Below are positions 41,303 to 60,145 of a DNA stretch of 64,000 bases, in pieces. The notes beneath the pieces were generated by a model, which searched no databases, was not told where the DNA came from, and saw only the letters and a list, made by a program, of their open reading frames with translations. A program made the translations under genes and the position numbers. The DNA comes from Puia sp. (lineage in GTDB: Bacteria > Bacteroidota > Bacteroidia > Chitinophagales > Chitinophagaceae): positions 77,500 to 141,499 of the forward strand of contig DATMGS010000019.1 in the NCBI GenBank assembly GCA_035555335.1, written 5' to 3'. Numbering within the stretch: position 1 is the first letter of the stretch; each line of letters opens with the position of its first letter.

Positions 41303-42004
41303 GTGAAGGCAAGAAACGTTTTTCTGGTAGTGTTGCTTATTATCGTGGCTGATCAATCGCTGAAGATCTGGGTAAAGACCCATATGCCCCTTAGTCATCC
41401 CCTGGAAATTTACCGGGAGCCGGTGTCTAAGTATGACAATGGGATCAAGCTGCTGGGTAATAAAGGGCAGATCTACTTTGTGGAAAACGAGGGCATGGCC
41501 TGGGGCTGGAAATTCGGGGGCGCCCTCGGTAAGATCGCGCTGACCCTGTTCCGCCTCGTAGCGGTAGTCTTCGGCGTTTATTATATCCATACGGTCATTA
41601 AAAGGCGATATCACCGGGGATTCATTATCTGTGCAGCCCTGATCTTTGCCGGCGCGCTGGGCAACCTGCTCGACAGCATGTTCTATGGCCTGATCTTCGA
41701 AGAGAGCACCTTCGATCACGTCGCAAAAATGTTTCCTCATACGGGATACACCAGCTTCCTGCACGGGCGCGTGGTGGACATGTTATACTTCCCCCTGATA
41801 AAAACGCATTATCCTCATTGGATGCCTTTTGTCGGAGGCGATGAATTCGAATTCTTCAGTCCTGTCTTCAATATCGCCGACGCCTCTATCTCTGTCGGTG
41901 TGATCGCCATCCTCTTATTCCAAAAGAAATTCTTCCACAAAGAACCGGGCAGCGAAACGGCGCCCGTCGAGGGCAAGGCCAATGTAAATACGGTGAGCGT
42001 TTAA
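41303..42004 (+). CDS. lspA: Lipoprotein signal peptidase II
   Basis: ENEGMAWG, GALGNLLD, GRVVDML, VFNIADA. Confidence 0.95.
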   Translation: MKARNVFLVVLLIIVADQSLKIWVKTHMPLSHPLEIYREPVSKYDNGIKLLGNKGQIYFVENEGMAWGWKFGGALGKIALTLFRLVAVVFGVYYIHTVIKRRYHRGFIICAALIFAGALGNLLDSMFYGLIFEESTFDHVAKMFPHTGYTSFLHGRVVDMLYFPLIKTHYPHWMPFVGGDEFEFFSPVFNIADASISVGVIAILLFQKKFFHKEPGSETAPVEGKANVNTVSV

Positions 42005-43341
42005 CCGCCGTATTGGCGGACATCCAAAATAACTTTATCGGGCCGCAAGGTAATTAAAGGCTTTAGCTCCGGGATCTGCCCTGTCGGGCTGATCTGGAAT
42101 TTTGTAAAAAATGCATACAGGAAAAAAGACATCTCCGCCATAGCGAAATTGTTGCCGATGCAGAGCCGGGGTCCGGCGCCAAAGGGGAAGAAATTCTTCG
42201 GTTTCTTTTCTTTGGCATTCTCCGTCAGGAACCTTTCGGGATGGAAGGCAGACTCGTCGTCCCAATATTCTTTGTCCCTGTGTAAGCCATAAAAGAACGA
42301 TAAGATGATCGTGCCGCTGGGAAAGGAATATTCTCCGAACCGGTCGTCTTTCAGCGCGACCCTATCCGTCATCCAGGCTGCCGGATACAGCCGCATGCCT
42401 TCATTGATGACGGCGGCTATATACTCGTCTTTTACACTGTCCTGAATGGACCGGGCCTCCATCGAAGCCCTTAATTTTTTGACCACCTCCGGCTCCGATG
42501 CCAGGGCGTATAGCAGCCAGCTAAGCGTATTGGCGACGGTCTCATGTCCCGCAAAGATCAATACCAGGATCTGGTCGATGAGCTGCTCTTCGGGTATCGG
42601 CAGGCCGCTGTCTTCATATCTTGTATGCAGGAGAATGTCCAGCAGGTCGCTGAAGGCGTCCTTACTGGCCCGGCGCTCTTCTATGATGCCTTTCAGAATG
42701 GCTCTCATTCTCGCCGACTTTTGGAGGTTGCGCTTGTCCGCATGGTTGAAGGGATAGAAGAGCCTCCTGACGGGTTGATTGATCTCCTTGATATAAAAAT
42801 CCTGCACTTCGCTGAAGGTCCGGCTTAATTCCGTCATCGTATCGGAAGAGAGATGGATGGTAAACAGGGAGCTGATGACAATATTAAACGCCAGTTGATG
42901 CACCAGGGGATAGATATCGATACTGGCTCCGGTGGGAAAGGTGGACAGGGATTTTTCAATGGAGTCGATCATGATGCCATACAGACCCTGTATTTTTTCC
43001 CGGTGAAAGCCAGGTTGTACGAGCCGACGGTGTGTCAACCAGTCTTCTCCATTGGAAAAGAGAAATCCTTTTCCAAAATATTTGGCGGCCCTCTCGGCTG
43101 TCAGCGATGATTTATGATAGTTACTGTGGTTCTCCTTGAGGACATAGTTGATGAAGGCCGGGTCCTGGGTCAGAATGAGGTGGTATTTCCGCAGGGTGGC
43201 TACGGAATAGGTGCCGGAAAACTTAGCCATATTCAGGGAGACGAATTTGATCGGGTTGGACAAAAACCGGTAAGATCGCAGGATCGATTGGAAGGCAGAA
43301 TAGCCGGCGGGTAAATGATAGGTTTTATTTTCGGTATTCAT
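42001..43341 (-). CDS. Cytochrome P450
   Basis: I-helix AGHETV, EGMR (ExxR), FHPERF, FGAGPRLCIG heme motif. Confidence 0.96.
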   Translation of the reverse strand: MNTENKTYHLPAGYSAFQSILRSYRFLSNPIKFVSLNMAKFSGTYSVATLRKYHLILTQDPAFINYVLKENHSNYHKSSLTAERAAKYFGKGFLFSNGEDWLTHRRLVQPGFHREKIQGLYGIMIDSIEKSLSTFPTGASIDIYPLVHQLAFNIVISSLFTIHLSSDTMTELSRTFSEVQDFYIKEINQPVRRLFYPFNHADKRNLQKSARMRAILKGIIEERRASKDAFSDLLDILLHTRYEDSGLPIPEEQLIDQILVLIFAGHETVANTLSWLLYALASEPEVVKKLRASMEARSIQDSVKDEYIAAVINEGMRLYPAAWMTDRVALKDDRFGEYSFPSGTIILSFFYGLHRDKEYWDDESAFHPERFLTENAKEKKPKNFFPFGAGPRLCIGNNFAMAEMSFFLYAFFTKFQISPTGQIPELKPLITLRPDKVILDVRQYGG

Positions 43342-43480: not shown

Positions 43481-46213
43481 TTATTTCGAAAATTTTACCA
43501 TTTTCTCACTGATCATTTTATCGGCATACTGGATTTGCAGCACGTAAGTACCATTGGTCAGCCCCCCCAATCCATAAAGAGAGAGCCCATTGAGGCCCTG
43601 CGATACAGGAGCTTTTTCGCGTCGGACCACCCGTCCGTACATATCGGTCAGCCTGATCACCACCGTGCCATCACCCGGGGTCGTCAGCTCCATCGTGATA
43701 TGGTCGGAGAAAGGATTGACCACGCTCCTGATCTCGAAACCGATCCCCGCAGTGCCCAGCAGGACCAGGCTGCTATAACGGTGCGTATTGTCGCTGGTGA
43801 TATTGATGCGGTAATAGGATTGTGCGGCGGGCGGATTGGGGTCTGTGTAATGATACCCCGCACCCTGTCCGGCGCCGGCTGTACCTTTCACGAAGCCGAT
43901 GGACGTAAAATTGACACCATCGTCACTACGCTCGACGATATAACCGACATCGGCCGTCTCATCGGCGCTTACCCATTGCAGCGCACTCAACCCTTCCCGT
44001 ACCTGTCCGCGAAAAGAGATCAGCGTAGTAGGCAGCACGATCATACAATTGACGGCAAGTACGATCTTGGGCGATAGGGTTATAAAAGAACAACTACTGC
44101 TGCTTAAATTGGCAGTGGTGCTGGCAACGGTGATCCGGTACATAAGATAGGTATTGACTGCGTTGAGCCGGAAATAGCGGGTAATGATATATTCATACTG
44201 ACCGGTCGCTGAATTATACACCGGTACAGCGCTACCCGATGCGGCGGCTCCCGTCGTATCGACCCCGACGGTCACCCAGGTGGTCCCCCCGTCCGTGCTT
44301 TTCTCCATCTTCCATTCCGTATAGTTGGAAAAATAGGAAATGACCTTAAAACGGACCGTATCGTCCGCGCCCTGGCAAAGGGTATCGGGTTTGTTAGGCG
44401 TCAGCACCATTTGAGGCGAACAGCTGGCTACGCCGATGTCATCGATGGCCCAGTCATTACCACCGCCACCGGGGGCATTGTTCCGGATGCTGATAACCAT
44501 CGTAGTCTGGGTCGCGCCCGTCAGGAAAGTAAACCCTTTCTGTACCCACTGGCCGCTATATTGTATATTCCCCGTGGTATAATAATCATACCCGTTCACA
44601 TTAAAGGTCAGGTTGGGGTATACGCCCGAAGAGTCATGGGTGGTGGAATTCGTAGGGATATAACCCGAACTGCCGGATCCGACGCCATTCGAGTCACATC
44701 CGCAGCGGGAACACATATTGCGGAACCAGCCGCTATACTGGTAGTACGTATTCGGACATAGATTATAGACGGTGTCCAGGAAAGCTGTATCCGTCCGGTA
44801 AGCGGAGTTGACCACAACCATATAACCACCCGTCTTGCCCGAGTTGTCATCCGTTGCAGGATTACCCGCGGTAGGACTGGCCGCTCCGGTATGGTCGCCG
44901 ATAATATCCCATACACCGAATATCCGGTGGGAAGGGCTCTGGGAATTGTCCGGCTTGGCCCAGGTATTCAGGATCGAATAACCCTGCGCCGCCGTGGTGC
45001 CGCCGCTCGTATTATTGGATATGCCATAATAATAGTCATTCGGCATGCCCGCGCTGCTCGAAAAAGCGGAATAGGTATAATTGGACGGCACTTTATTGGA
45101 AGCCGCCCGGTCCTTGGTGCTCCCCGACCCGAAAGTGCCGCCGAATTCATTGATGATCGCATTGCTTCCAACCGTATTCGGGCACATGCCGTAATTCTTA
45201 AAGAGCATGATATCATCCTTCGGAAAGGTGACCTGGACCATGCCCGTAGTATTGTTGTATTGGAGCATGCCGGCACCCACACTCACCACGGTATTATACC
45301 CCACAGCCCCTACCACTACCCGGTAAGAAGCTATCATGATACAGGAGCCGCCGTAAAAACTAGGTTTGCTGGTATTGGCTAAGATCCCCCCGGCAGTGGC
45401 GGTAGCCCCGGATCCCAGGTTGATCGTGATGGCCGAGCCCGAGAGAGTACCCCCGTCCGCATCGGAGGCATCGGTAAATTGCTGGTATATTTTGCCTTCA
45501 TTCGTCAACACCCGGAGCGTACCGGCCTGATAGGTCGTATTGGCGGGGATATTATCGGTAAAGGAACAATCATAAGCTGAATTGGCTTTCACGACAATGG
45601 TAGCTCTAATCTCCAGGGTGTCTCCCGGCTCAATCGTACCCCCGGTGGTCCCTTTGGTAATATTTAAATAGCTTTTGCCGTAATCGACGGTAGGAACACC
45701 CGTCGTCAGATTGGTGATACAGATGTTGAACCCCCAGAGTCCTGTCGTAAAAGGCCCCGTTGAATTGGTATAGATCCGGATGTAATAGGTCGTACCTACC
45801 GTAAGACCAGCGCCGCCGATGTTCGTTAGCACATTGAGCGTATTCCCGCTCACACAGGCGAGGGAAGTCATGCTTGCACAGGTCCCTGAAAATAATTGGA
45901 TCCTTGCTCCTGCAGCACTAAGACTCCCTCCTAAACTGCTTAAAGTAATAGTGGGATAAGAACTGGTTGCCACAAATGAATACCATACGTCCGCGGAAGT
46001 AGCCGCACCGCAGTTCACGGCTATCCCCACACTGGCGGTGGCATTTTTTAAGGTGCCGGCTGTAGTCGTACAGGTGGTGCCGGAGGTGAGCGTAGAAGCA
46101 CCAGAGCAAAGGTCATTTGTTGGTTGTGCATAAGCCAGGTTGCTTACCAGGAAAAAGATCACTAAAGCAAGCAGGGCTTTGACTGTGCGTACAGAACAGA
46201 GCTTGGTTTTCAT
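43481..46213 (-). CDS. Large T9SS type A sorting domain surface protein (DUF11-like and lectin-like modules)
   Basis: Signal peptide; QPTNDLCSGA module; GGTIEPGDTLEI DUF11-like motif; DHT..GYMVVVN module; LTNGTYVLQI C-terminal domain. Confidence 0.82.
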   Translation of the reverse strand: MKTKLCSVRTVKALLALVIFFLVSNLAYAQPTNDLCSGASTLTSGTTCTTTAGTLKNATASVGIAVNCGAATSADVWYSFVATSSYPTITLSSLGGSLSAAGARIQLFSGTCASMTSLACVSGNTLNVLTNIGGAGLTVGTTYYIRIYTNSTGPFTTGLWGFNICITNLTTGVPTVDYGKSYLNITKGTTGGTIEPGDTLEIRATIVVKANSAYDCSFTDNIPANTTYQAGTLRVLTNEGKIYQQFTDASDADGGTLSGSAITINLGSGATATAGGILANTSKPSFYGGSCIMIASYRVVVGAVGYNTVVSVGAGMLQYNNTTGMVQVTFPKDDIMLFKNYGMCPNTVGSNAIINEFGGTFGSGSTKDRAASNKVPSNYTYSAFSSSAGMPNDYYYGISNNTSGGTTAAQGYSILNTWAKPDNSQSPSHRIFGVWDIIGDHTGAASPTAGNPATDDNSGKTGGYMVVVNSAYRTDTAFLDTVYNLCPNTYYQYSGWFRNMCSRCGCDSNGVGSGSSGYIPTNSTTHDSSGVYPNLTFNVNGYDYYTTGNIQYSGQWVQKGFTFLTGATQTTMVISIRNNAPGGGGNDWAIDDIGVASCSPQMVLTPNKPDTLCQGADDTVRFKVISYFSNYTEWKMEKSTDGGTTWVTVGVDTTGAAASGSAVPVYNSATGQYEYIITRYFRLNAVNTYLMYRITVASTTANLSSSSCSFITLSPKIVLAVNCMIVLPTTLISFRGQVREGLSALQWVSADETADVGYIVERSDDGVNFTSIGFVKGTAGAGQGAGYHYTDPNPPAAQSYYRINITSDNTHRYSSLVLLGTAGIGFEIRSVVNPFSDHITMELTTPGDGTVVIRLTDMYGRVVRREKAPVSQGLNGLSLYGLGGLTNGTYVLQIQYADKMISEKMVKFSK

Positions 46214-46446: not shown

Positions 46447-48231
46447 ATGAAAAGCAGACCAATTTATATTTGTTGTCTTTCGGCCTGCCTGTGCCTATCT
46501 CTGAATCTTTCTGCTCAAATGACCGTAACATATTATGGTCAGACTTTTAAAATCGACACTTTATACCCCGCCACCGGGTCAACGGGAATGAATACGCCCT
46601 GGGAGGTCGTTTATGGTCCGGACGATTCCTTATGGGTGACGGCAGCCCATGATTATAAGATCTGGAAGATCCATCCGGGGAATAAAGGAGTCCGTGAACT
46701 GCTGGATGTCAATGGCCTAAAAGACTTTACAAGCCCCGCCTCCTGGCCCCAGGGCGGGTTAATGGGCCTGGCTATACACCCCGCATTCTATTCGGGCAAG
46801 CCATGGGTCTATTTTGCGTATGTCTATCACCTGGTGGGTTGTAACACCGGCAGCAACCCCACCGGCAATCCGTTCTGCACCAACTGCGCCACTGGGTCCT
46901 GCAGCTTTAACACCAAAATCGTCCGTTACCAATATAATTTTGCGGATGGCTCCTTATCCTATATGAACGATGTGATCTCCGGGCTGAATGGGAGCACCGA
47001 TCATAATTCCGGCCGAATCCGGATCAGTCCGCTTACGGAGAGCGATGGGAAATATCATCTTTATTATACGATCGGGGATATGGGGGCGGGTAACCTGTCA
47101 AATGCCAACCGGCCTAATCATGCCCAGGATACCACTATCATAGAAGGAAAAGTATTAAGGCTGAATACGGAGCCGGATCTTTCATTGACTGGCAGTCAGC
47201 AATGGGTCCCGGGTGATAATCCCTTTCCGGAGGGCGCGGCCCCCTCCGCTAAAAGCCCTATATATTCTTTTGGTCACCGTAATCCCCAGGGGCTGGTCTT
47301 CGGCTCCGTGAACGGGGGCGCCTCCTATAATTTGTACAGCAGCGAGCATGGGGATAAGTCGGATGACGAGGTGAATATCATTTTACCCCATACCAATTAC
47401 GGCTGGCCAAAAGTAGCCGGCCTCTGCGATGATAATTATACTTCGACGAACGGGGATTCCATGTACCTGGCGAATAAATCCGTTATCAGTGAAAAGGGGT
47501 TTTGCGATACGACGCACACTACGTTGCAGGAGCCGATTTTCTCTTTTTATAACTGGAGCCGGGCTAATAATAAGACTTCGGGAGCGCAGGGAAATATGTA
47601 CTGGCCTACTATTGCCCCGTCCTCTATTGCCTTCTATGGACAGGGAGCTATCCCGGGCTGGAATTATTCCCTGCTGGTGCCTTCTCTGAAGAATGGTCTT
47701 TTCCGGTTAAAATTAAAACCGGACGGGCTCAGCATCGACAGTACGCAGTTGCCTACCGATACCCTCCATTATCTGCCGGGTTTTCGGTTACGGAATATCA
47801 CGGTGGCGCCTTCCGGAGATACGCTGTTTGTAGCGGTAGACAATTCCTGTTGTGCGATCGATGCTTCCGGAACGCTGGGCACGTCCGTATCCACCCCCCC
47901 GGATAAGGGGTTTATCCTGCGGATGGTGTATATGACGACCCTGGACCTGAAGGGGGATACAAATAAAATACTGCCGGAACCTACTCTGACCACCTGTAAG
48001 GTATATCCGAATCCAGCCCACAAGACCCTCTATGTGGAAGTCCCCCCGGGGGAGCGCCGGCCTCTGACAGCGGGTCTCTATGATATCACGGGCAGACTCC
48101 TTCTGCGGATGGAGACGGCCGACGATCATTGTTCTCTCGACGTTCATGCTCTTTTGCCCGGGATCTATGTTTTCCGGCTCCTGAATGGGTATGCGGTACC
48201 GTTGCTTACCGAGAAGATATTGATCGAATAA
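46447..48231 (+). CDS. PQQ-dependent sugar (glucose/sorbosone) dehydrogenase with T9SS sorting domain
   Basis: PWEVVYGPD, GGLMGLAIHP, HNSGR, YSFGHRNPQGL, SEHG..DDEVN, NYGWP; VYPNPA...LLPGIYVF C-terminal domain. Confidence 0.88.
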   Translation: MKSRPIYICCLSACLCLSLNLSAQMTVTYYGQTFKIDTLYPATGSTGMNTPWEVVYGPDDSLWVTAAHDYKIWKIHPGNKGVRELLDVNGLKDFTSPASWPQGGLMGLAIHPAFYSGKPWVYFAYVYHLVGCNTGSNPTGNPFCTNCATGSCSFNTKIVRYQYNFADGSLSYMNDVISGLNGSTDHNSGRIRISPLTESDGKYHLYYTIGDMGAGNLSNANRPNHAQDTTIIEGKVLRLNTEPDLSLTGSQQWVPGDNPFPEGAAPSAKSPIYSFGHRNPQGLVFGSVNGGASYNLYSSEHGDKSDDEVNIILPHTNYGWPKVAGLCDDNYTSTNGDSMYLANKSVISEKGFCDTTHTTLQEPIFSFYNWSRANNKTSGAQGNMYWPTIAPSSIAFYGQGAIPGWNYSLLVPSLKNGLFRLKLKPDGLSIDSTQLPTDTLHYLPGFRLRNITVAPSGDTLFVAVDNSCCAIDASGTLGTSVSTPPDKGFILRMVYMTTLDLKGDTNKILPEPTLTTCKVYPNPAHKTLYVEVPPGERRPLTAGLYDITGRLLLRMETADDHCSLDVHALLPGIYVFRLLNGYAVPLLTEKILIE

Positions 48232-49037: not shown

Positions 49038-49646
49038 ATGCAACCAATTCTCTTTTTCTGGATAGCCTTTCTGGTCTTGCTGGCACTGATGGTGTTCCTG
49101 GACCAAAAGTTCTTTATGCTGCGGGACAGCAGCACAGCCCTGCCCAAGCCATATAGCTATGCCCGGGTGCAGCTGGCCTGGTGGACGCTGGTGGTGCTGT
49201 CATGCATCATTGCGATCCTGCTGGCGGGCAGTGCGATGCCTACGCTCGACAGCTCGACACTGATCCTGCTGGGGATTGCAGCGGGTACTACGGTGGCGGC
49301 CCGGCTGATCGATGTCTCCGACCATACCAATTCGGGTACCGGCCTGGTCAGCCAGAATTTCCCAGGCGAAAATTTCCTGTTGGATATTTTGTCCGATAAG
49401 AACGGGGTAAGCATTCATCGGCTGCAGTCGGTACTGATCAATATCATCTTCGGGGTCTGGTTCATCGCGCAGGTGCTCCGGCATTTGACGGGGGTGAACC
49501 CCTGCCTGCCAGGGGATGCAGATTGTTTAAAACACCCGCTTGATTTTATCATGCCGGTGATCAGTACGAATAACCTGATCCTGCTGGGGCTGAGCTCGGG
49601 GACTTATGCGGCGCTGAAGACCACGGAGAATAAGACGGCGGCATAG
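49038..49646 (+). CDS. Hypothetical membrane protein with internal duplication
   Basis: Two repeats: SYARVQ...MPTLDSSTLILLGIAAGT and SIHRLQ...MPVISTNNLILLGLSSGT. Confidence 0.8.
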   Translation: MQPILFFWIAFLVLLALMVFLDQKFFMLRDSSTALPKPYSYARVQLAWWTLVVLSCIIAILLAGSAMPTLDSSTLILLGIAAGTTVAARLIDVSDHTNSGTGLVSQNFPGENFLLDILSDKNGVSIHRLQSVLINIIFGVWFIAQVLRHLTGVNPCLPGDADCLKHPLDFIMPVISTNNLILLGLSSGTYAALKTTENKTAA

Positions 49647-49719: not shown

Positions 49720-51822
49720 ATGGATCGAAAGGAGAACGACCTCACACATATCAGGTTTCGAAAGGATTTTTCCTATGCTAAGAAAACGCCCACTTTCGTC
49801 AGCAATGCGATCGGCGCCTCCGATGAGATAGCGAGATGGGTGCTCGATTGGAATGATGTCTTATATAAGGACGAACCCCATGCCCCCGCCCTGTGCACTC
49901 CTGTTATGAATAGATTGATTGGTGACGGCAATACCGGCGGCCCGGGCCCTGTTTTGATCAGGACGGATGCGCTGCTCTATACGACAGAGAGTGTGATCGT
50001 TTATTTCGAACAACGTTGTGCGCCGGAGAAGCGGCTTCTGCCGGCGGATGCCGCTAAGAGACAGGAAGTAGTGACTTTATATAATCTGTTTACCGGCCCC
50101 TTTGAAGGGAACGTATACGGGTATCTCTATGGACAGTTGCTCGCCAACCCGGGAGAAGCGCGGAGCTGGTTTACACAGGGCGTTCCCTTCGGGGAGAAAC
50201 TGCAGTATATGCTGTCGTTTGGCGCCCTGCGAAAAGAGCTGACCCGCGAATGGGGGCTGGCGGAGAAGCCGGCGGGAGAGAGGCTCGCCTATATTAAAAA
50301 AATATTCGGGGATGTGGATACGATACTGAGCGATGGCCGCAGATACCTGACGGGAGACCGGTTGACCATCGCCGATATTGCTTTCGCCGCTGTAGCAGCG
50401 CCGTTGCTCCTGCCCATTGAATTCGGGGGAGCAATAGGGGCGATCCACACGGTGCCCACAGAGATGCGCAGAGAAGTGGAAGAGCTTAGGGCGACCCCCG
50501 CAGGTCAGTATGTTTTGCTGCTCTACCAGGATGAGCGCCCCCTGCGGCGTAGCCGGAAAGATATCCCGAAGGACCCGGGCCCTTTGGGAAAGCTGGGTTT
50601 GCAGCTGGGGCTGGCGCTGGACCGGAAGAAGACAGGGCTTTTCTGTTTCCTGCAAAAGCACTTCCCCGTACTGAGGCTGGGAATAGTAGGGCTGGCGGCC
50701 GTCTGTAAGAATGACCTGCTGGTAGAAATGATGGAGCGGGATAATGATTTTACCGTGGAGGAGATCAATGGTAAGAAGATGGCCAATCAGAAGGGGGCCT
50801 TCTTTTTAGGTTTTGACCGCAATAACCCCCAGTTCGACCGGGAACGGAATTTTGTCCGCCGGACGGCGAAGAAAGAAGACATGGACCGGATCCGGTCTTT
50901 TATCCGGGATTCCTGCGAGCAGATCCTGCGACAGGCGAGATCTTATGGCAAGGTGGATGTGGCCGATTCGATGTGTTATACGGTATTGGTGCGTTTCATC
51001 GACGATTATTTCGGGGTGCCGCCTCCCACGGAGCCGATTATGCGACATTGGCTTCGCGTATTGTTCTATGACCTGTTCCTGAATTTTACCAATGACGCGG
51101 TCAAGCACCAGGAAGCTGTAAGCGCCGCCCTGGACAGAAGGGTGTGGGTCCTGCAGCTGATCAGGGACCGGCGGCGTGATCTGGATACGGGTAAGACTTT
51201 AGCCGATAATGTGTTGAACCGGATGATCCTGCTGCAAAGGGAGGAAGGCAACGGATGGTTCGACGATGAGACGATCCAGCGTAATATCGGGGGATTGATC
51301 ACGGGTATCCTGGAGACGACGAATAAGGCAGTAGTGCTGGTATTGGATGAACTGTTCAACCGGCCCGATGTGCTGAAGGGAGCGATCGATACGGCGCAGA
51401 TAAAGGATATGAAAAAGATGTATGGGTATGTGTCCGAGGCGCTGCGATTTAACCCCGCGCAGCCCGGAGTGATCCGGTATTGTGAGAGCGGGCAGGTGCT
51501 GAAAGGCAAGGGGACCAAACCATACCGGATCAAAGCAAAACGCAAGGTCTTCGCGCTGACGGCCTGCGCGATGATGGACCCGGCCGTATTCCCTGAGCCC
51601 CGGCAGTTCAACCCTCAGCGGGAGGCCGTCTATATGAACTACGGATACGCATTGCATGAGTGTTATGGTAAGTACATCAATGCGGTGACGATCTCCGAGT
51701 TTGTGGCGGCCGTGCTGCGTTTGCCCGGTATCCGGCGGGAGCCGGGATGGGCGGGGCGGGGGACGGGCCTGCATGTGGGACCGTTCTTTAACAATTTTGT
51801 AGTGCGATTCGATACCATTTAA
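49720..51822 (+). CDS. Glutathione S-transferase-fold / cytochrome P450 fusion protein
   Basis: GST-like N-terminal part (ARWVLDW...HAP; YLTGDRLTIADIAFAA); P450 C-terminal part with GILETT (I-helix), EALR, PRQFNP and YGYALHECYG (Cys codon at 51661). Confidence 0.85.
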   Translation: MDRKENDLTHIRFRKDFSYAKKTPTFVSNAIGASDEIARWVLDWNDVLYKDEPHAPALCTPVMNRLIGDGNTGGPGPVLIRTDALLYTTESVIVYFEQRCAPEKRLLPADAAKRQEVVTLYNLFTGPFEGNVYGYLYGQLLANPGEARSWFTQGVPFGEKLQYMLSFGALRKELTREWGLAEKPAGERLAYIKKIFGDVDTILSDGRRYLTGDRLTIADIAFAAVAAPLLLPIEFGGAIGAIHTVPTEMRREVEELRATPAGQYVLLLYQDERPLRRSRKDIPKDPGPLGKLGLQLGLALDRKKTGLFCFLQKHFPVLRLGIVGLAAVCKNDLLVEMMERDNDFTVEEINGKKMANQKGAFFLGFDRNNPQFDRERNFVRRTAKKEDMDRIRSFIRDSCEQILRQARSYGKVDVADSMCYTVLVRFIDDYFGVPPPTEPIMRHWLRVLFYDLFLNFTNDAVKHQEAVSAALDRRVWVLQLIRDRRRDLDTGKTLADNVLNRMILLQREEGNGWFDDETIQRNIGGLITGILETTNKAVVLVLDELFNRPDVLKGAIDTAQIKDMKKMYGYVSEALRFNPAQPGVIRYCESGQVLKGKGTKPYRIKAKRKVFALTACAMMDPAVFPEPRQFNPQREAVYMNYGYALHECYGKYINAVTISEFVAAVLRLPGIRREPGWAGRGTGLHVGPFFNNFVVRFDTI

Positions 51823-51833
51823 ACCAATATTTC

Positions 51834-53096
51834 ATGACGCATCAACATCCACTGACGCTTGTTACGCCCGTGAAAGACGGGGAACATGATAGCCTGCATA
51901 GCTTGCTCATGCAGATACGGGCGGATGTGCAGGCCGGTATCCCCCAGTCTTTCGAGAGCCTGGGCACGATCCACTATGCCCGTTGGATATTGCTGGAACC
52001 CAAAGATGCCGATGGCAACGTCGAGACGGATGTGGGCGTACGGTTGGTTTTCTCCTCCAACTATGACGGAGACGAGGATGTTCATCTGACCGGATTGGCC
52101 AATCATTGCGCCGTTTTCATCGATCAGCTCTACGGGCATTGCGAGGGATATCCTGCCCCGGCCAGCCGGACGGTAGAGAATCGTAAACAATATTTAGCGA
52201 AGTGGCGGGTGAAGGAGTCCGCCTTCTTTGTAGGCGCGCCGGGCAGGACCCTGCCGCAGATCCGCCAGGAGAACGAGCTGCGCAATTACGTCTGGACCCG
52301 GATCAATCAGGGCGACTGGAAGGGAAAGTCGGCCCGGGAGATCCACCAGGTCCTGAAGCAGGACGTATTGGATAAACCCGGATTTCAATGGGCGCGGCAA
52401 TCTATAACCATACCGGGTATCCGGTGGCTGGGCATGGTCCTGCTGGGACTGATCCTGCTGATCCTTCTGCCGGTCATCATCATCTGGATCCTGCTGTTGC
52501 ACTTCCTCTTCGAACGGACCGATGAACCGCTGGGACTGACACCCAGCCAGGTGAGCGGAGCGCATGTCAAAGAGCTGGAAGAGTATGAGGACCTCGCCAA
52601 TCAGAATCAGTTTACACAGGTGTTGATCATGAAACCGGGCATGATGCGGCTGATCACACTGAAAGGGCTGATGTTGTTTGCGAAGGCGCTGATCAGCTTT
52701 CTCTTTGTGAATGGCAAGCTCATGGGGATACCTACGATCCATTTTGCCCGCTGGGTAATGATCGACAATCAGAAGAGGATGTTGTTCTTCAGCAATTTCG
52801 ACGGGAGCTGGCAGCAATACCTGGGCGATTTTATCGATAAGTCGGGATGGGGACTGACGGGGATCTGGAGTAATACCATCAAGTTCCCGCGCACAAAATT
52901 TCTCTTTACCGGCGGCGCTTATGATGAGGAACACTTTCTGGCCTGGAGCCGTTATTTCCAGGTGCCGACTGCCGTCTGGTATTGTGCATATCCGCGTCTG
53001 TCGATCAAGAATGTCATCAACAATTCCTATATCCGCAATGAGCTGTTCCGGGATCTGAGCGAAGAGGAGGCGAGGAATTTCTTACAGCGGTTCTGA
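51834..53096 (+). CDS. Hypothetical protein with duplicated TIH[YF]ARW...SN[YF]DG domain and central TM helix
   Basis: Domain 1 GTIHYARW...FSSNYDG, domain 2 PTIHFARW...FFSNFDG, separated by WLGMVLLGLILLILLPVIIIWILLLHFLF. Confidence 0.85.
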   Translation: MTHQHPLTLVTPVKDGEHDSLHSLLMQIRADVQAGIPQSFESLGTIHYARWILLEPKDADGNVETDVGVRLVFSSNYDGDEDVHLTGLANHCAVFIDQLYGHCEGYPAPASRTVENRKQYLAKWRVKESAFFVGAPGRTLPQIRQENELRNYVWTRINQGDWKGKSAREIHQVLKQDVLDKPGFQWARQSITIPGIRWLGMVLLGLILLILLPVIIIWILLLHFLFERTDEPLGLTPSQVSGAHVKELEEYEDLANQNQFTQVLIMKPGMMRLITLKGLMLFAKALISFLFVNGKLMGIPTIHFARWVMIDNQKRMLFFSNFDGSWQQYLGDFIDKSGWGLTGIWSNTIKFPRTKFLFTGGAYDEEHFLAWSRYFQVPTAVWYCAYPRLSIKNVINNSYIRNELFRDLSEEEARNFLQRF

Positions 53097-53139
53097 GGGC
53101 GCGGCGACGTCCACATTTTTAAAGGTTTAAATTTATTTT

Positions 53140-54549
53140 ATGGAAGAGACATTAGAGCTATCGGATATACAGGGATATATCATCAGGGGATACAAATACA
53201 TGCAGTATTCCCGGTATGCGGTGCTGCGGGTGACCGACGCCGTGGAAGCCCGAAAATTCCTGAAAGACCATGTGGACGAGGTGACGAATGTGACGCATCA
53301 TGCGAAAACGAATTGCCTGAATATCGCTTTTACCTGCGCCGGGCTGAATGCGCTGGGGTTGAAGAATTCCAACCTGGCTTATTTCACCCGGGAGTTCCGG
53401 GAGGGGATCACGTCGGCGCATCGTCAGCGGCTGCTGGGAGATACGGGAGACAGCGCTCCGGAGGCCTGGCGTTGGGGAGGACCCGATAACGAAGCCGTAC
53501 ATCTGTTGTTGATGGTCTTTGGGAAGGATAAAGAGACGGCATTGAGCTATTATACAAGGCTGCAGAAGGAATTTGCGCCGGGATTGGCGGAGGTATTGCA
53601 GATGGATGGACAGACTTTGCCGATGAACAGGGAGCATTTTGGTTTCCGGGATGGGATCTCGCAGCCGATTATCAAGGGGAGCGGACGTAAGGGGCCGGAG
53701 AATGATTATATCAATGCCGGGGAATTCCTGATGGGCTATAAGAATGAATACGACGTATACCCGGATACGCCGCTGCTGGGCGAGGACCAGGGGGAAAGCT
53801 TCCTGCTGCCTTTCGATGCGGCGGGCACGGGGAAGAAGGATCTGGGACGCAATGGCAGCTATATGGTGATGCGGCAGCTGCAGCAGGATGTGAAGGCGTA
53901 TTGGGAGTTTATGAATGAGAAGACCAGGAATACGGATGGCTCTGTCAATGCGGAGGAAAGTACCAGGCTGGCTTCGAAGATAATGGGCCGCTGGCCCAGC
54001 GGGGCGCCGGTGGTGAAGTTCCCGGACAAGGACCCGGGGGGAGAATCGAATGACGATTATTTTACGTATTCGGATCTGGATAAGGAAGGGCTGAAATGCC
54101 CGTTTGGCTCCCACCTGCGCCGGACCAATCCCCGGGATAACTTCGAGGACAACGGACCGAAAGAGTCGATGCGGCTTACGCGGCGGCATCGGATCATGCG
54201 CCGGGCGAGGCTGTATGGGGATCCTTATATGGGATCTCCGTCGAACTATACGCCGGACGGGGAGGTCGGGCTAATCTTTACCTGCTTCAATACAGATATC
54301 TCACGGCAGTATGAGTTCATTCAATATACCTGGGCGAATTATCCTAAATTCAAAGAGCTGTATAATGACCCGGACCCGGTGTGCGGAGTGAAACATGACC
54401 CCGGACCGGGAGTGGAGCAGAACTTTACGATACAGGCGGAGCCGGTGAATAAATATGTGACGGGGTTGCAGCGGTTTGTAACGGTGAGAGGTGGAGCCTA
54501 TTTCTTTTTCCCTTCCGTCACAACCATCACCTACTTAAGCACCTTATAA
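53140..54549 (+). CDS. Dye-decolorizing (DyP-type) heme peroxidase, no signal peptide
   Basis: DIQG, EHFGFRDGISQP (catalytic Asp), GSYMVMRQLQQ, GRWPSG, CPFGSHLRRTNPR (proximal His), IMRR (distal Arg), GGAYFFFPS. Confidence 0.93.
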   Translation: MEETLELSDIQGYIIRGYKYMQYSRYAVLRVTDAVEARKFLKDHVDEVTNVTHHAKTNCLNIAFTCAGLNALGLKNSNLAYFTREFREGITSAHRQRLLGDTGDSAPEAWRWGGPDNEAVHLLLMVFGKDKETALSYYTRLQKEFAPGLAEVLQMDGQTLPMNREHFGFRDGISQPIIKGSGRKGPENDYINAGEFLMGYKNEYDVYPDTPLLGEDQGESFLLPFDAAGTGKKDLGRNGSYMVMRQLQQDVKAYWEFMNEKTRNTDGSVNAEESTRLASKIMGRWPSGAPVVKFPDKDPGGESNDDYFTYSDLDKEGLKCPFGSHLRRTNPRDNFEDNGPKESMRLTRRHRIMRRARLYGDPYMGSPSNYTPDGEVGLIFTCFNTDISRQYEFIQYTWANYPKFKELYNDPDPVCGVKHDPGPGVEQNFTIQAEPVNKYVTGLQRFVTVRGGAYFFFPSVTTITYLSTL

Positions 54550-54567: not shown

Positions 54568-55005
54568 ATGAGTCCTGACACCATGTTCGAACTAACCTCC
54601 CTGTTTGCCGGAATCGGCTGGATCGCCCTTCTTTTTGTGAGCCCCTACTGGCCCGGCTTCGACAAATTCCTGATCGGCGTGATCATTGCCTTGCTGGCTT
54701 GTGTCTATACCTGGTTGAATTTCTCCAACTTCAGCCCGGATATCCTGAAGAATTTCAGCTCGCTGGAAGGAGTGATGAAACTGTTCCAGATCCCCGAACT
54801 GGTGGTGGCCGCCTGGGTCCATATCATGGCCTTCGATCTTTTAACCGCCGTCTGGATAAAGAAGAATTCCCTGCAACTGGGGATCGGGCATGGCTGGATC
54901 ATACTTTCCCTGATCTTTTCCTGCCTTTTCGGGCCATTGGGTTATCTTATCTATCTGCTGACCCGCTGGATCAGGACGAAAAACTATTTTTCTACGAATT
55001 TTTGA
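54568..55005 (+). CDS. ABA4-like / DUF4281 membrane protein
   Basis: AWVHIMAFDL and FGPLGYLIY motifs; four TM helices. Confidence 0.85.
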   Translation: MSPDTMFELTSLFAGIGWIALLFVSPYWPGFDKFLIGVIIALLACVYTWLNFSNFSPDILKNFSSLEGVMKLFQIPELVVAAWVHIMAFDLLTAVWIKKNSLQLGIGHGWIILSLIFSCLFGPLGYLIYLLTRWIRTKNYFSTNF

Positions 55006-55501: not shown

Positions 55502-56254
55502 TCAGTTCGTGGCTCCTCCATTTACTAATAAATGCTGACCCGAAACGAAAGACGATAAGTCGCTGGCAAAAAACTCGGCCAGGTTGGCTACGTCTTCTAC
55601 TTCCGCAAGCCTCCCCATCGGACAGCTATCCAGCAACTGTTTTCTTAATTCGGGATAGGCCTTGGGATCTGCAAAGATGCCCGAATGATCCACGGCAAAA
55701 GGAATGATCGAATTGACGGTAACCCCTCTGTGTCCGATCTCTTTGGAGAGGATGTCGACAAGGTAGCGGGGCGTGGTCTTGCTGCCGCCATAGACCGCCA
55801 TGCCGGGAACGGGGAAGCTGGTGGTGCTGGATGCCACATAAATGATCCTGCCATTGTCTTCTATATGCCGGGCTGCCTGCTGCAAGGTGAAGTACGTGCC
55901 CTTGGTGTTGATGGAAAACACCCGATCGAATTGTTCTTCCGTAAAATTGACCACCGGTGTCTCGACCAGCTCGATACCCGCATTGGCCACGACGATATCT
56001 ATTTTCCCAAAGGCTGATTTTGCTTCCGTAAATAACTTTTCCAGATCGGCGACCTTGCTGACATCGGCCTGGATAGCAATCACTTTGACACCCATAGCTT
56101 TAATATTGGAGACCACTTCTTCGGCGGATGCCTTGTCCCTGGAGTAGTTGATGACGATGTCGGCGCCCATGGCGGCATAACGCTCTGCAATGGCTTTGCC
56201 TAAACCTCTGGCTGATCCTGTAACCAGGGCGACTTTGTTCTTTAAACTGTTCAT
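55502..56254 (-). CDS. Short-chain dehydrogenase/reductase (SDR)
   Basis: TGSARGLG, NAG, YGGSK (YxxxK). Confidence 0.95.
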   Translation of the reverse strand: MNSLKNKVALVTGSARGLGKAIAERYAAMGADIVINYSRDKASAEEVVSNIKAMGVKVIAIQADVSKVADLEKLFTEAKSAFGKIDIVVANAGIELVETPVVNFTEEQFDRVFSINTKGTYFTLQQAARHIEDNGRIIYVASSTTSFPVPGMAVYGGSKTTPRYLVDILSKEIGHRGVTVNSIIPFAVDHSGIFADPKAYPELRKQLLDSCPMGRLAEVEDVANLAEFFASDLSSFVSGQHLLVNGGATN

Positions 56255-56687: not shown

Positions 56688-57400
56688 CTAAGATCGGCCT
56701 TTGCCGGCCTGTTTCCGATACAGGATAGGGGAGAGGTCGGTGTGTTTTTTAAAGTAATTGCTGAAGTGGGTGGACTCGGGGAAGCCCAGCTGCCAGGCGA
56801 TCTCCTTGATGGAAATAGAAGAGTTCTGAAGGAGGGACCTGGCCTCGGCGATGGTCTTGTCAGAGATCCAGGCGCCGACGGATTTGCCGGTCTTGCTTTT
56901 GATGACGTTGCTGAGATAGTTGGGATGCAGGTGCTGAGCCGCGGCATAGTCCTGGATGCGGAAGACCTTTGTTTCGGACCCTTTCAGGAGGTTACGGTAG
57001 TGTTGTTCAAGTGTCTTTTTGAAGGATTTGACGATCTGGGAGGAACGGTTGCCTTCGTAAATGGGATTGTATTCCGACCAGAAGTATTCCTTTATTTTCA
57101 GCAGCAGGACGACGAATAAGTTGCCGATCACCCGGTTCTTATAGACAGAGCTGGAAAGATATTCTTTATGGATCTGTCCATAGAGCTGTTCGAATTCCGC
57201 AAACATCTCAGGTTGCAGCACCCGCGGGGGAACTGTCTCGGCCAGGAGAAAAGGGAATTCATCGAAGATGTTGGGGTGTACGTTTTCTTTCAGGAAGGAT
57301 TCGCTGAGAGTGATCAGGTAAATGGCGTCTATGTTATGCCATGATAAACGTATTGCTGGTGCAGCGAGTTAAAAACCAGGGCCTTTTCTTGGGTTGCCAT
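56688..57400 (-). pseudogene. AraC family transcriptional regulator, frameshifted by an apparent internal deletion
   Basis: The ATG at 57400 gives MATQEKALVFNSLHQQYVYHGIT then stop. A second frame (WHNIDAIYLITLSESF...) runs into an intact AraC HTH (HLHPNYLS...SIKEIAWQLGF...HFSNYFKK). Confidence 0.75.
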
Positions 57401-59422: not shown

Positions 59423-60145
59423 TCACCGTTTAGGCAACCGGTTGTCCAATAATTGCCGGAGAACGGAATCCCGTTCGGTGCGGCTGATAGGGATATGGTG
59501 TGGTCCGATCCTGATATCATTGCCTTCAATGCTCTCTATCTTATCAGCGGCCACGATAAAGGATTTGTGGGTACGGATGAACCGGTCGGCGGGCAGATAG
59601 GCTTCAATGCCGTGAAAGGTGAGGTAGGCGATATGTTTTTTACCGGTTGTCTGAATGGCTATATAATTTTGCAGGGCTTCCACAAAGAGGATCTCATCGA
59701 ATCGGATCTTCATCAGTTTGTTATCGCTTTTTAGGAAGAAATAATCTTTTTGGGGGTCAGCGTTTTCTGTGGGCGCCTGCATGGATGATTCTTTCAATTT
59801 CCTTGCCTTCATTACCGATTTGCAAAAGCGATCGAAGGAAAAAGGCTTTACGAGGTAATCGATCGCGTTTAATTCGAATCCTTCGACGGCATATTGGGGA
59901 TAAGCGGTAGTGAATATAATCATTGGAGGATGGGACAGGGTCTTCAGAAAATCCACTCCTGTCATTTTCGGCATCTGTATGTCGAGGAAAAGTAAGTCTG
60001 CTTTTTGTTGCAGGATGGTGTCGATGGCTTTTATGGGATTGTCGAATTCGCCGGCCAGTTGCAGAAACCCCAGGTCCTGTATATATTCTTTCAGGCCTTT
60101 GCGGGCCAGGGGCTCATCGTCTATGATGATACAGCGTAATATCAT
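59423..60145 (-). CDS. LytTR family response regulator
   Basis: IIDDEP, FLDIQMP, TTAY, DYLVKP; LytTR domain FIRTHKSFIV. Confidence 0.96.
   Translation of the reverse strand: MILRCIIIDDEPLARKGLKEYIQDLGFLQLAGEFDNPIKAIDTILQQKADLLFLDIQMPKMTGVDFLKTLSHPPMIIFTTAYPQYAVEGFELNAIDYLVKPFSFDRFCKSVMKARKLKESSMQAPTENADPQKDYFFLKSDNKLMKIRFDEILFVEALQNYIAIQTTGKKHIAYLTFHGIEAYLPADRFIRTHKSFIVAADKIESIEGNDIRIGPHHIPISRTERDSVLRQLLDNRLPKR

Follow-up and report, generated by a model that had tools for sequence, protein, structure and literature searches.

The window analysed here, a 64,000-nucleotide stretch of a Puia sp. contig, encodes at positions 49720..51822 (+ strand) a GST-fold–P450 fusion that is both real and old. 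This fusion very probably belongs to a functional unit made up of the P450, a DyP peroxidase and unk420, a partner without a known family. The conserved module points to a two-haem oxidation machine.

Reality and distribution of the fusion gene

The fusion gene, the first gene of the conserved module, was defined using the ORF listing, Pfam, its homologues and an AF2 model. The ORF listing gave a single ORF of 700 aa with an ATG start, with coordinates identical to those of the uninterrupted frame claimed in a preliminary description of this DNA. All of the motifs quoted there were located as well: GASD (residues 32–35), ARWVLD (38–43), HAP (54–56), PVL (77–79), YLTGDRLTIADIAFAA (209–224), EALR (573–576) and YGYALHECYG (641–650, with Cys648). 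Pfam placed p450 (6e-14) and GST_C_2 (1e-6), both above cutoff, on one polypeptide, well outside what coincidence would give, and the two-domain AF2 model of the 700-aa fusion reached a pLDDT of 83.6 and a pTM of 0.84. GST_C families and p450 were the sole matches in Pfam and NCBIfam, and no fused reductase domain was found in the protein by these searches.

A total of 183 fusion homologues were recovered; the 120 best listed are nearly all ~700 aa long, with coverage of 98–100% and identity of 49–100%. The continuous GST–P450 architecture is present in >100 protein clusters at 90% identity, and the hosts of full-length homologues are Chitinophagaceae, Flavobacteriia, Cytophagia, Gemmataceae, Myxococcota and one Glaciecola isolate. 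Isolate genomes with the fusion are those of Flavitalea flava, Danxiaibacter flavus, Glaciecola amylolytica, Aureisphaera galaxeae and Brumimicrobium mesophilum. The whole ORF was found with 0 differences on a 39.9-kb contig assembled independently from a public soil run, and a contig of a ~94%-identical strain from a second run spans the domain junction (50065–50883) without indels. The family alignment showed that the linker between the GST and P450 halves is conserved.

That neighbouring GST and P450 genes had been joined through a frameshift or misassembly has practically no probability left. We found nothing in favour of such an artefact, although a related locus (L058) does have broken copies; the homologues with the same continuous architecture, isolate genomes among them, the identical independent assembly, the conserved linker and the pTM value rule it out. 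The reservation in the preliminary description that the fusion might be unique to this assembly and unsupported by reads is contradicted by the >100 clusters and the independent assembly, and the doubt that the N-domain might not be GST-fold is likewise contradicted by the Foldseek and profile-versus-PDB matches given below. The fusion of the two folds is thus genuine, the top 50 Foldseek matches of the N-domain being GST-fold and the C-terminal half scoring a TM of ~0.8. No paper describing a natural GST–P450 fusion was found in our literature searches, which agrees with the earlier remark that no characterised example was known.

The GST-fold half

The GST-fold domain (aa 1–280; 49720..50559, +) was assigned from an AF2 model of the N-domain (pLDDT 87.3), Foldseek and profile searches against the PDB. 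Its layout in the model is a thioredoxin-like β-α-β-α-β-β-α unit (aa 25–99) followed by a helical C-domain (aa 111–272). All 50 top Foldseek matches are GST-fold proteins, including 4mdc, GDAP1, FzlA, LigF and GTE1 (E ~1e-7), and the profile of this half matched delta GSTs in the PDB at 5.5e-8. The N-capping motif of the C-domain, YLTGDRLTIADIAFAA (50344..50391, +), lies within the Pfam GST_C_2/GST_C match (aa 189–226), and its residues A218 and D219 are invariant in the alignments.

Where canonical GSTs have their catalytic residue, the sequence reads GASD-E (aa 32–36; 49813..49827, +). Alignments A1 and A4 revealed that this position is variable, with A/G/T/V/L/C at residue 33, S/A/V/R/Y/T/L/P at 34 and D/S/G at 35, and that the residues around it, Glu36, R39 and W40, are invariant; no conserved Ser, Cys or Tyr is present in these alignments at the β1–α1 junction, where the invariant Glu36 sits. 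Remnants of the G-site (P77 of PVL, a cis-Pro-type residue, D83 and S91; 49948..49995, +) align with IPTLV...ES of the delta GSTs. Among these, P77 and D83 are invariant and S91, which opens helix 3, is near-invariant (at least 90% conserved), and the residue preceding S91, the acidic-partner position, varies (E/D/N/P/A). The family alignments gave an invariant set of Y19, E36, R39, W40, P56, D83, R250 and AGQ 261–263. Since no Ser, Cys or Tyr is conserved at the catalytic position, the earlier proposal of a possibly non-catalytic GST module is reasonable, and the domain is probably non-canonical and not GSH-conjugating. The cis-Pro, the γ-glutamyl-site Ser and Tyr19 are all kept and would leave room for thiol-dependent catalysis, and this half may trap a reactive product. 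For the main host phyla, bacillithiol derivatives and an absence of gshA-B are predicted, the absence from the gene content of Bacteroidetes and Acidobacteria (PMC6282198).

The domain occurs solely alongside haem oxidases, either P450 or RoxA-like. In one such protein, P0384, the same GST-like domain is followed by a TM helix and a probably periplasmic dihaem domain of RoxA-like type, an arrangement that fits a scaffold role of the GST fold and does not fit substrate hand-off. Non-catalytic GST-fold proteins provided a further comparison, in which GDAP1 and FzlA, both among the top structural neighbours, were grouped with the GST-like assembly domains of aminoacyl-tRNA synthetase complexes. 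As in these proteins, the GST half described here lacks a conserved catalytic nucleophile while both GST subdomains are present; it differs from them in an identity of at most 18%, in its own invariant residue set and in having haem-oxidase partners only. GDAP1 is a binder of a fatty diacid (PDB 7aia title).

The P450 half

Foldseek and phmmer searches against the PDB identified residues ~301–700 (50620..51819, +) as a cytochrome P450 domain of the class-I bacterial type. The Foldseek matches comprised ~50 solved P450s, with CYP134A1, P450BioI, CalO2 and CYP109 among them (E 1e-13, TM(target) ~0.8), and phmmer gave 1e-10. The I-helix, GGLITGILETT (51289..51321, +), contains the acid–alcohol pair E532–T533 and is near-invariant: in the family alignment G525, T528 and G529 are invariant and conservation reaches at least 90% at E532, T533 and T534, and the wider subfamily follows the consensus G-[AG]-x-[DE]-T-T. 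Invariant residues also make up the K-helix ExxR (EALR, aa 573–576; 51436..51447, +; E573 and R576) and much of the haem-thiolate loop YGYALHECYG (51640..51669, +; G642, H646, E647, Cys648 and G650). This Cys loop aligns without insertion with FGYGIHHCLG of solved P450s and amounts to FGxGxHxCxG with F replaced by Y and one G by A. The F position is Y or W within the fusion clade and F across the wider subfamily, and close relatives have YGFGLHECYG or FGYGLHxCFG.

Judged by these residues, this half is a canonical thiolate P450 in which the predicted oxygen- and peroxide-activating residues are intact. The preliminary description had called it atypical, which was overstated given a canonical Cys loop, ExxR and I-helix G-x-x-[DE]-T-T pair; these same features, together with best sequence and fold matches to class-I monooxygenases, leave its suggested CYP74, CYP152 or DOX-CYP kinship, and chemistry of those types, unsupported. 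The acid–alcohol pair is lost in CYP74, CYP5/8 and the CYP halves of DOX-CYP, whose Cys loop is altered or extended, and it is replaced by Arg-Pro in the CYP152 I-helix. A P450 of the CYP74 clan, CYP5–CYP8 or DOX-CYP type was therefore rejected, as the pair is kept here and the Cys loop has no insertion. A CYP152 peroxygenase was likewise rejected on the ETT of the I-helix and the absence of any CYP152 among the 60 best PDB sequence matches or the 50 top fold matches, and a self-sufficient P450–reductase fusion on the absence of a flavodoxin, ferredoxin or FAD-FMN domain, the N-domain being GST-fold.

The protein falls into a deep P450 subfamily of its own (737 representative clusters at E≤1e-30), other members of which have SnoaL/NTF2-like domains. 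It shares the fold, Cys loop, ExxR and acid–alcohol pair with class-I bacterial P450s of the CYP107/CYP109/CYP134 type (P450BioI, CYP134A1, CalO2, PikC); however, identity to these is only 15–20%, an extra 280-aa GST-fold domain is present, and instead of an adjoining ferredoxin or reductase the gene is linked to DyP and unk420.

Partner genes in the window

The module in the window runs GST–P450, unk420, class-V DyP and ABA4-like gene, with gaps of 11, 43 and 18 bp. The conserved operon with DyP and a membrane protein is the most informative feature of the locus, and it lies outside the coordinates covered by the preliminary description.

The unk420 gene (51834..53096, +) begins 11 bp past the P450 stop. 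Its 420-aa product displays two repeated α+β modules (IHYARW...SSNYDG and IHFARW...SNFDG) flanking a hydrophobic hairpin, and as read from the alignment only it may follow a tandem ferredoxin-like β-α-β-β-α pattern. There are 933 homologues, the named ones all being “hypothetical protein”, and no match was obtained in Pfam, NCBIfam or PDB sequence and profile searches; BLASTP and hhalign against a DyP alignment gave no match either, and after these searches the idea of a divergent DyP or of another known fold was dropped. A 29-residue hydrophobic stretch with a conserved central Pro (52425..52511, +; alignment A3) is replaced by ~40–45 hydrophobic residues in the homologues at loci L061 and L064, and we infer a topology in which it would form a re-entrant or two-helix membrane anchor.

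The third gene (53140..54549, +) encodes a class-V (C/D-type) DyP peroxidase (TIGR01413, 2.7e-30, above cutoff) that matches the D. radiodurans DyP (PDB 8re3) over its full length at 1e-49. The GXXDG distal motif, proximal His, distal Arg and two ferredoxin-like domains are present, and the catalytic residues GFRDG (168–172), His325 and RR (354–355) are intact and invariant in the alignment. The protein is without a signal peptide and is read as cytoplasmic. It shares GXXDG, the proximal His and the distal Arg with the class-V/C-type DrDyP (PDB 8re2/8re3), but its subgroup is set apart by being linked to, or fused with, a P450 whereas DrDyP has no reported P450 partner (PMC10820274).

A small ABA4-like (DUF4281) membrane protein (54568..55005, +; Pfam PF14108, 1.9e-21) is encoded by the last gene of the module. 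The 202-aa membrane protein encoded 74 bp upstream of the fusion gene (49038..49646, +), which has no Pfam match, is probably outside the module; both this and a 186-aa upstream membrane protein were rejected as members, as they are not conserved at other loci. A scan of the locus for promoters and terminators was uninformative for a Bacteroidota genome.

Linkage and fusions across genomes

All ORFs of 61 loci were clustered and their flanks searched with Pfam to obtain linkage counts. The fusion gene is adjoined by unk420 in 52 of the 61 loci and by DyP in 50, and P450, unk420 and DyP occur together in ~50 of them. This trio varies in gene order (three arrangements) and in orientation (two), lies between unrelated flanks, and is kept across five phyla. 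An ABA4-like gene follows the module in 32 loci and a patatin lipase, added or substituted, adjoins it in 13; beside L064 a GDSL lipase was matched weakly, short of the Pfam cutoff. Neither a conserved redox partner (ferredoxin or reductase) nor conserved lipoxygenase, desaturase or carotenoid genes were found near the module in these 61 loci. Cas and eCIS genes lie beside two loci. A known anti-phage defence system, considered in view of the patatin effector and the patchy distribution, was rejected, PADLOC having matched a generic phospholipase model only.

Within the subfamily, nine DyP–P450 fusions, one DyP–P450–GST fusion, two P450–unk420 fusions and two P450–GST fusions were identified. 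The DyP–P450–GST fusion has unk420 directly upstream, P0310 has unk420 fused to P450, and the DyP–P450 fusions have no reductase domain. The P450, DyP, unk420 and GST-like parts are hence genetically linked across phyla and fused together in other lineages. Literature searches for DyP–P450 fusions, for DyP with P450 and patatin, and for bacterial DUF4281 returned no relevant paper.

The module resembles the fungal DOX-CYP proteins (Ppo/linoleate diol synthase) in coupling a haem peroxidase-type protein to a reductase-less P450, covalently so in its DyP–P450 fused relatives, and the likeness extends to a possible fatty-acid supply from a lipase (patatin here). However, the partner is a DyP, a dimeric α+β barrel, and not a DOX of the peroxidase–cyclooxygenase superfamily; moreover, the P450 keeps the acid–alcohol pair, and in the window DyP and P450 are separate genes. 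Membership in the fungal class was therefore rejected and the likeness is one of analogy only. P450 and GST-fold proteins also act in one pathway in pairs such as GliC/GliG of gliotoxin biosynthesis, or epoxidation by a P450 with subsequent GST conjugation. Such pairs are separate, catalytically canonical and glutathione-using, in contrast to the fused protein described here with its degenerate catalytic position.

Proposed role and alternatives

We give roughly even chances to a role of the fusion protein as the P450 subunit of a membrane-associated P450 and DyP module whose substrate is hydrophobic and in which the GST fold is used for docking or for holding a ligand. Through the hydrophobic hairpin of unk420 the proteins would be anchored at the inner membrane, on its cytoplasmic side. 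There the P450 would oxygenate a hydrophobic substrate derived from the membrane and the cytoplasmic DyP would oxidise it with peroxide, one step after the other and probably with channelling between them. The GST-fold domain would be no classical glutathione transferase; it may serve as a dimerisation or docking module, may retain a hydrophobic ligand or a reactive product until it is passed on, or both. In favour of this, its closest folds include the non-catalytic GDAP1, a fatty-acid binder, and FzlA. Electrons for the P450 may come from an unlinked housekeeping ferredoxin and reductase, or peroxide may be used. A candidate substrate would be an unsaturated acyl chain freed by patatin or a carotenoid-like polyene.

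A lipid or polyene substrate with sequential P450 and DyP chemistry is proposed tentatively, at somewhat less than even chances. The hints of lipid are the patatin and ABA4-like genes, the predicted unk420 anchor and the weak GDSL-lipase match at L064. Since patatin and the ABA4-like gene are found at only 13 and 32 of the 61 loci, the lipid or carotenoid reading would rest on accessory genes. DyPs prefer phenolic or anthraquinone substrates; this preference and the SnoaL/NTF2-like domains of the subfamily make an aromatic polyketide or quinone substrate equally conceivable.

Three other explanations were weighed against this role. The GST half might be catalytic, as in GliC/GliG or LTC4 synthase, and conjugate or reduce an electrophile made by the P450 (an epoxide or quinone methide) with a low-molecular-weight thiol. 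The conserved P77 and Ser91 of the thiol site and the invariant Tyr19 would suit such an enzyme, true enzymes (LigF, GTE1, delta/epsilon GSTs) are among the fold neighbours, and consecutive enzymes are commonly fused. We nevertheless consider it unlikely, as the invariant Glu in place of Ser, Cys or Tyr at β1–α1 would disfavour a thiolate, the acidic partner of Ser91 is variable, the same domain is also found across the membrane from a RoxA-like domain, and Bacteroidetes and Acidobacteria are predicted by gene content to lack gshA-B (PMC6282198). Still less credit, indeed very little, can be given to a stand-alone detoxification P450 whose GST domain aids solubility or dimerisation only and whose neighbours are independent genes co-regulated under oxidative stress. 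As with a stress cassette, the genomic surroundings of the module do vary, and the physiological roles of DyPs are generally unknown, some being poor peroxidases (PMC10820274); co-regulation alone, however, leaves unexplained both the repeated independent fusions of P450 to DyP, unk420 and GST in differing orders and the retention of the trio across five phyla in several gene orders.

The remaining explanation is that DyP or autoxidation forms a fatty-acid hydroperoxide from acyl chains supplied by patatin. Needing neither O2 nor NAD(P)H, the P450 would rearrange this hydroperoxide into an allene oxide, an epoxy alcohol or a diol, and the reactive product would be handled by the GST-fold domain or the ABA4-like protein; this would be an analogue of fungal DOX-CYP or of COX followed by CYP5/CYP8. 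Members of GST-fold and NTF2/SnoaL-fold families open epoxides or isomerise peroxides, and accessory domains of both folds are present in the subfamily. The reductase-less DyP–P450 fusions, the lack of a conserved redox partner near the module, the patatin at 13 loci and the Pfam name of ABA4, linked to allene formation in plants, agree with such chemistry. It is nonetheless improbable in our judgement: the [DE]-T pair is kept subfamily-wide, most DyP-fused members included, the Cys loop has the usual length and lacks a CYP74-type insertion, class-I monooxygenases come out best in both the sequence and the fold searches, and we know of no DyP with fatty-acid dioxygenase activity.

Significance

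Natural P450 fusions with non-redox partners are rare and mechanistically instructive, fungal DOX-CYP being the main example, and within the reach of our literature searches no GST-fold–P450 fusion has yet been characterised. The comparative data tie a P450 subfamily of 737 clusters (E≤1e-30) to cytoplasmic class-V DyPs and to a protein family of more than 900 members without annotation, unk420. The physiological function of class-V DyPs is an open question (PMC10820274), and with a three-to-five-gene cassette in cultivable hosts the role of bacterial C-type DyPs becomes directly testable. If the GST fold is an assembly or ligand hand-off module, the non-enzymatic uses of this fold would be extended to bacterial oxidative metabolism. 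More speculatively, and with small odds as a whole, the class-V DyP, the P450 subfamily and the hairpin-anchored family may form a membrane-tethered two-haem complex, fused or GST-assembled, that oxidises membrane lipids or carotenoids in at least five phyla. Its products would then be oxylipin- or apocarotenoid-like signals or repair intermediates, and it would constitute a bacterial, evolutionarily independent counterpart of fungal DOX-CYP and of the animal COX to CYP/GST cascades, and provide the first physiological role for class-C/V bacterial DyPs.

Results

The GST-P450 fusion gene lies on the forward strand of the window at 49720–51822 as one single ORF of 700 codons with an ATG start. 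All the motifs quoted in the preliminary description were located in its product, namely GASD (residues 32–35), ARWVLD (38–43), HAP (54–56), PVL (77–79), YLTGDRLTIADIAFAA (209–224), EALR (573–576) and YGYALHECYG (641–650). Two Pfam families scored above their curated cutoffs within this one chain, p450 (residues 443–634, 6e-14) and GST_C_2 (residues 189–226, 1e-6). In NCBIfam all matches fell far below threshold; they were to various P450 equivalogs and to the GST-like models for FzlA and maleylacetoacetate isomerase.

Among 5.8 billion proteins searched, 183 homologues of the fusion were identified. Among the 120 homologues listed, nearly all are about 700 aa long, with 98–100% coverage and 49–100% identity; their sources include numerous MAGs as well as the isolates Flavitalea flava and Danxiaibacter flavus. 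In IMG such proteins are already annotated “cytochrome P450/glutathione S-transferase”. A scan of one genome per species yielded 61 related loci, the closest (90%) in Chitinophagaceae/Puia, with others in Flavobacteriaceae, Crocinitomicaceae, Cyclobacteriaceae, Cytophagales, Gemmataceae, Nannocystaceae/Polyangia and one deltaproteobacterial MAG; in the acidobacterial loci the match is confined to the P450 half. A 57%-identical copy in the gammaproteobacterium Glaciecola amylolytica (locus L014) suggests that the gene has been transferred horizontally. In a public soil run assembled independently by Logan, a 39.9-kb contig also contains the whole fusion ORF with zero differences, and a contig of a ~94%-identical strain from a second run spans the domain junction without indels. 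Since homologues of the same length and coverage, the 61 loci and the independent assemblies agree, an assembly artefact was rejected and the fusion is considered real. In one Chitinophagaceae MAG (L058, 6455–10078), the DyP (dye-decolorizing peroxidase) and GST-P450 genes are each broken into three overlapping ORFs, through either pseudogenisation or long-read indel errors.

The first 295 residues, modelled separately (pLDDT 87.3), form a thioredoxin-like β-α-β-α-β-β-α unit followed by a helical domain. The 50 best PDB matches of this model were all GST-fold proteins (E ~1e-7), including the bacterial GSTs 4mdc and 4o7h, human GDAP1, FzlA, the β-etherase LigF, fungal GTE1/GSTFuA and insect delta/epsilon GSTs. 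A profile of the N-domain, built from 20 diverse loci, reached delta-class GSTs at 5.5e-8 and, with weaker scores, GDAP1 and FzlA; the matched region takes in the cis-Pro/α3 segment and the C-domain N-cap. These fold and profile matches identify the N-domain as a GST fold, in agreement with the preliminary description.

In Ser/Cys/Tyr-type GSTs, the β1-α1 junction is the site of the nucleophile-activating residue. Residues at this junction vary freely in the GST half, position 34 being S, A, V, R, Y, T, L or P; Glu36, two residues further on, is invariant, as are R39 and W40. Other invariant residues are the cis-Pro P77, D83, and A218 and D219 of the C-domain cap, together with the family-specific Y19, P24, P56, R250, AGQ (261–263) and R273. 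S91 is near-invariant and corresponds to the Ser of the γ-glutamyl-binding “ES” pair; the acidic residue beside it is not so conserved. Structurally the GST half belongs to the GST superfamily, and it lacks the conserved catalytic residue of the active classes.

An AlphaFold2 model of the full-length protein (30-sequence alignment; mean pLDDT 83.6, pTM 0.84) matched about 50 solved bacterial class-I P450s with E ~1e-13 and TM(target) ~0.8, among them CYP134A1, P450BioI, CalO2, CYP109 and PikC, and sequence searches concurred. Residues C648, G642, H646, G650, E573, R576, G525, T528 and G529 are invariant in the 30 family members, with conservation of 90% or more at E532, T533 and T534. When 151 representatives of the wider subfamily were aligned against a local HMM, the I-helix read G-[AG]-x-[DE]-T-T, containing the classical acid-alcohol pair, and the Cys loop read FGxGxHxCxG in most of them; Tyr or Trp replaces the Phe only in the Bacteroidota clade of the window, where many sequences read YGFGLHECYG. 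The P450 had been called atypical, which on this evidence overstates the case. By every sequence and fold criterion tested, this half belongs to the P450 superfamily, within which it forms its own subfamily with 15–20% identity to solved enzymes. A second, ordinary stand-alone P450 outside this subfamily (446 aa, Pfam 2.4e-71) is encoded 6 kb upstream (42001–43341, reverse strand).

Three genes trail the fusion gene on the same strand. They encode unk420, a 420-aa protein (51834–53096, after an 11 bp gap), a 469-aa DyP (53140–54549, after 43 bp) and a 145-aa ABA4-like/DUF4281 membrane protein (54568–55005, after 18 bp). The DyP belongs to class V (C/D type), with D. radiodurans DrDyP as its best solved relative (1e-49); it lacks a signal peptide and retains GFRDG, the proximal His and the distal Arg. 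No relative of unk420 was found in Pfam, NCBIfam or the PDB by sequence or profile, and similarity to DyP was undetectable; among its 933 homologues, those with names are all “hypothetical protein”. In the alignment, two repeated modules around IH[YF]ARW and SN[YF]DG lie on either side of a hydrophobic stretch of 29 residues that has a conserved Pro at its centre; the corresponding segment comprises 40–45 hydrophobic residues in acidobacterial and other homologues. We infer that unk420 may form a membrane hairpin with both soluble modules in the cytoplasm, beside the signal-less P450 and DyP.

The proteins of the window were used to search the ORFs in six frames of each of the 61 related loci. 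About 50 of the 61 have P450, unk420 and DyP side by side, in three gene orders, in convergent and divergent arrangements and among unrelated flanking genes. The ABA4-like gene follows this module in 32/61 loci, and a patatin-like phospholipase (Pfam 7e-32) adjoins it in 13/61; in the Flavobacteriia version the patatin gene directly follows DyP and replaces the ABA4-like gene. Flavobacteriia-type modules also have a conserved 207–265-aa protein with no Pfam match immediately upstream of GST-P450 (L028, L036, L040–L043, L047, L056 and L059). Across the 61 loci the surroundings of the module contain no recurrent ferredoxin, reductase, lipoxygenase, desaturase or carotenoid gene, the 202-aa membrane protein upstream in the window is not conserved, and PADLOC recognised only a generic phospholipase at module loci.

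The module (50001–54000) has higher GC (0.54–0.55) and a markedly positive GC skew (+0.15 to +0.17), against a GC of ~0.50 and a skew of ~0.03 on either side. This contrast, the variability of the flanks and the G. amylolytica copy at 57% identity hint at a horizontally mobile cassette. Downstream are an SDR (55502–56254, reverse), probably unrelated to the module because it recurs near it in only 5 loci, an AraC-type regulator (56688–57221, reverse) and a LytTR-type response regulator with its histidine kinase (59423–61182, reverse). Upstream, two proteins (43481–46213, reverse; 46447–48231, forward), one a glucose/sorbosone dehydrogenase-type β-propeller, carry type-IX-secretion C-terminal sorting domains, which fits a window of Bacteroidota (Puia-like Chitinophagaceae) origin.

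A P450-subfamily profile search of 1.84 billion representative proteins gave 737 clusters at E ≤ 1e-30, the best 151 of which were classified with local HMMs of the four proteins and Pfam checks. Among them were P450 only, fragments included (89), GST-P450 (42), DyP-P450 (9), fragmentary P450-GST (2), P450-unk420 (2) and a single DyP-P450-GST protein (P0263, 1142 aa), whose contig encodes an unk420 homologue (3e-73) directly upstream. One P450-unk420 protein, P0310, matched unk420 at 2e-60 by BLASTP. Such independent covalent fusions, in differing orders, argue strongly that P450, DyP, unk420 and the GST-like domain function as one unit. In another protein, P0384 (953 aa), the same GST-like domain (ARWVLD...HVP...NPVL...DGRPYL) is joined via a TM helix to a dihaem cytochrome c domain of RoxA-like type; the domain thus has haem-oxidase partners of more than one kind. 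Two subfamily members, P0329 and P0330, carry a SnoaL-like (N-terminal) or NTF2-like DUF6841 (C-terminal) domain in place of the GST fold, which suggests that accessory domains for small-molecule handling may be interchangeable.

Discussion

As read from sequence, the module combines a canonical thiolate P450 bearing a degenerate GST fold with a cytoplasmic class-V DyP and a protein with a predicted membrane anchor, the coupling to DyP and unk420 being genetic and, in some lineages, covalent. In the favored reading, such a complex would lie on the cytoplasmic membrane, at its inner face, where a hydrophobic substrate could be oxidized consecutively by the P450 (oxygenation) and the DyP (peroxide-dependent). 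The accessory genes, patatin and ABA4-like, suggest that this substrate is an acyl lipid or a carotenoid-type polyene; an aromatic or quinone substrate is the alternative.

A peroxidase-type haem protein coupled to a P450 recalls the fungal DOX-CYP fusions, in that sense only, and the P450-DyP system is not a member of that family. CYP74, CYP5/CYP8, CYP152 and the CYP halves of fungal DOX-CYP proteins have lost the acid-alcohol pair and have an altered Cys loop. Both hallmarks were looked for in the P450 half, whose phylogenetic comparison with CYP74, CYP152 and DOX-CYP had been proposed, and are absent. A DOX-CYP-like hydroperoxide isomerase, one of two main rival readings, is disfavored by the retained acid-alcohol pair.

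The other, a thiol-dependent catalytic GST, is likewise disfavored, both by the degenerate catalytic site and by the thiol biology of the hosts. In a published gene-content survey (PMC6282198), gshA-B was found in Cyanobacteria, Proteobacteria and Eukarya, and Bacteroidetes and Acidobacteria had pathways for bacillithiol or N-methyl-bacillithiol. The variable catalytic position, the set of conserved residues and this survey favor, short of proof, a non-canonical GST half that may be non-catalytic, as had been suspected, or may use a partner other than glutathione. In behavior it most resembles non-catalytic GST-like proteins, and it could serve as a docking/dimerization or ligand-holding module.

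The preliminary description knew of no characterized GST-P450 fusion. Our search of the full-text literature, in which most subscription journals fall outside coverage and prior work is possible, likewise yielded no report of a naturally occurring GST-P450 or DyP-P450 fusion, nor of the module operon. Here a P450 joined to a non-redox domain lies within an uncharacterized pathway that may be new.
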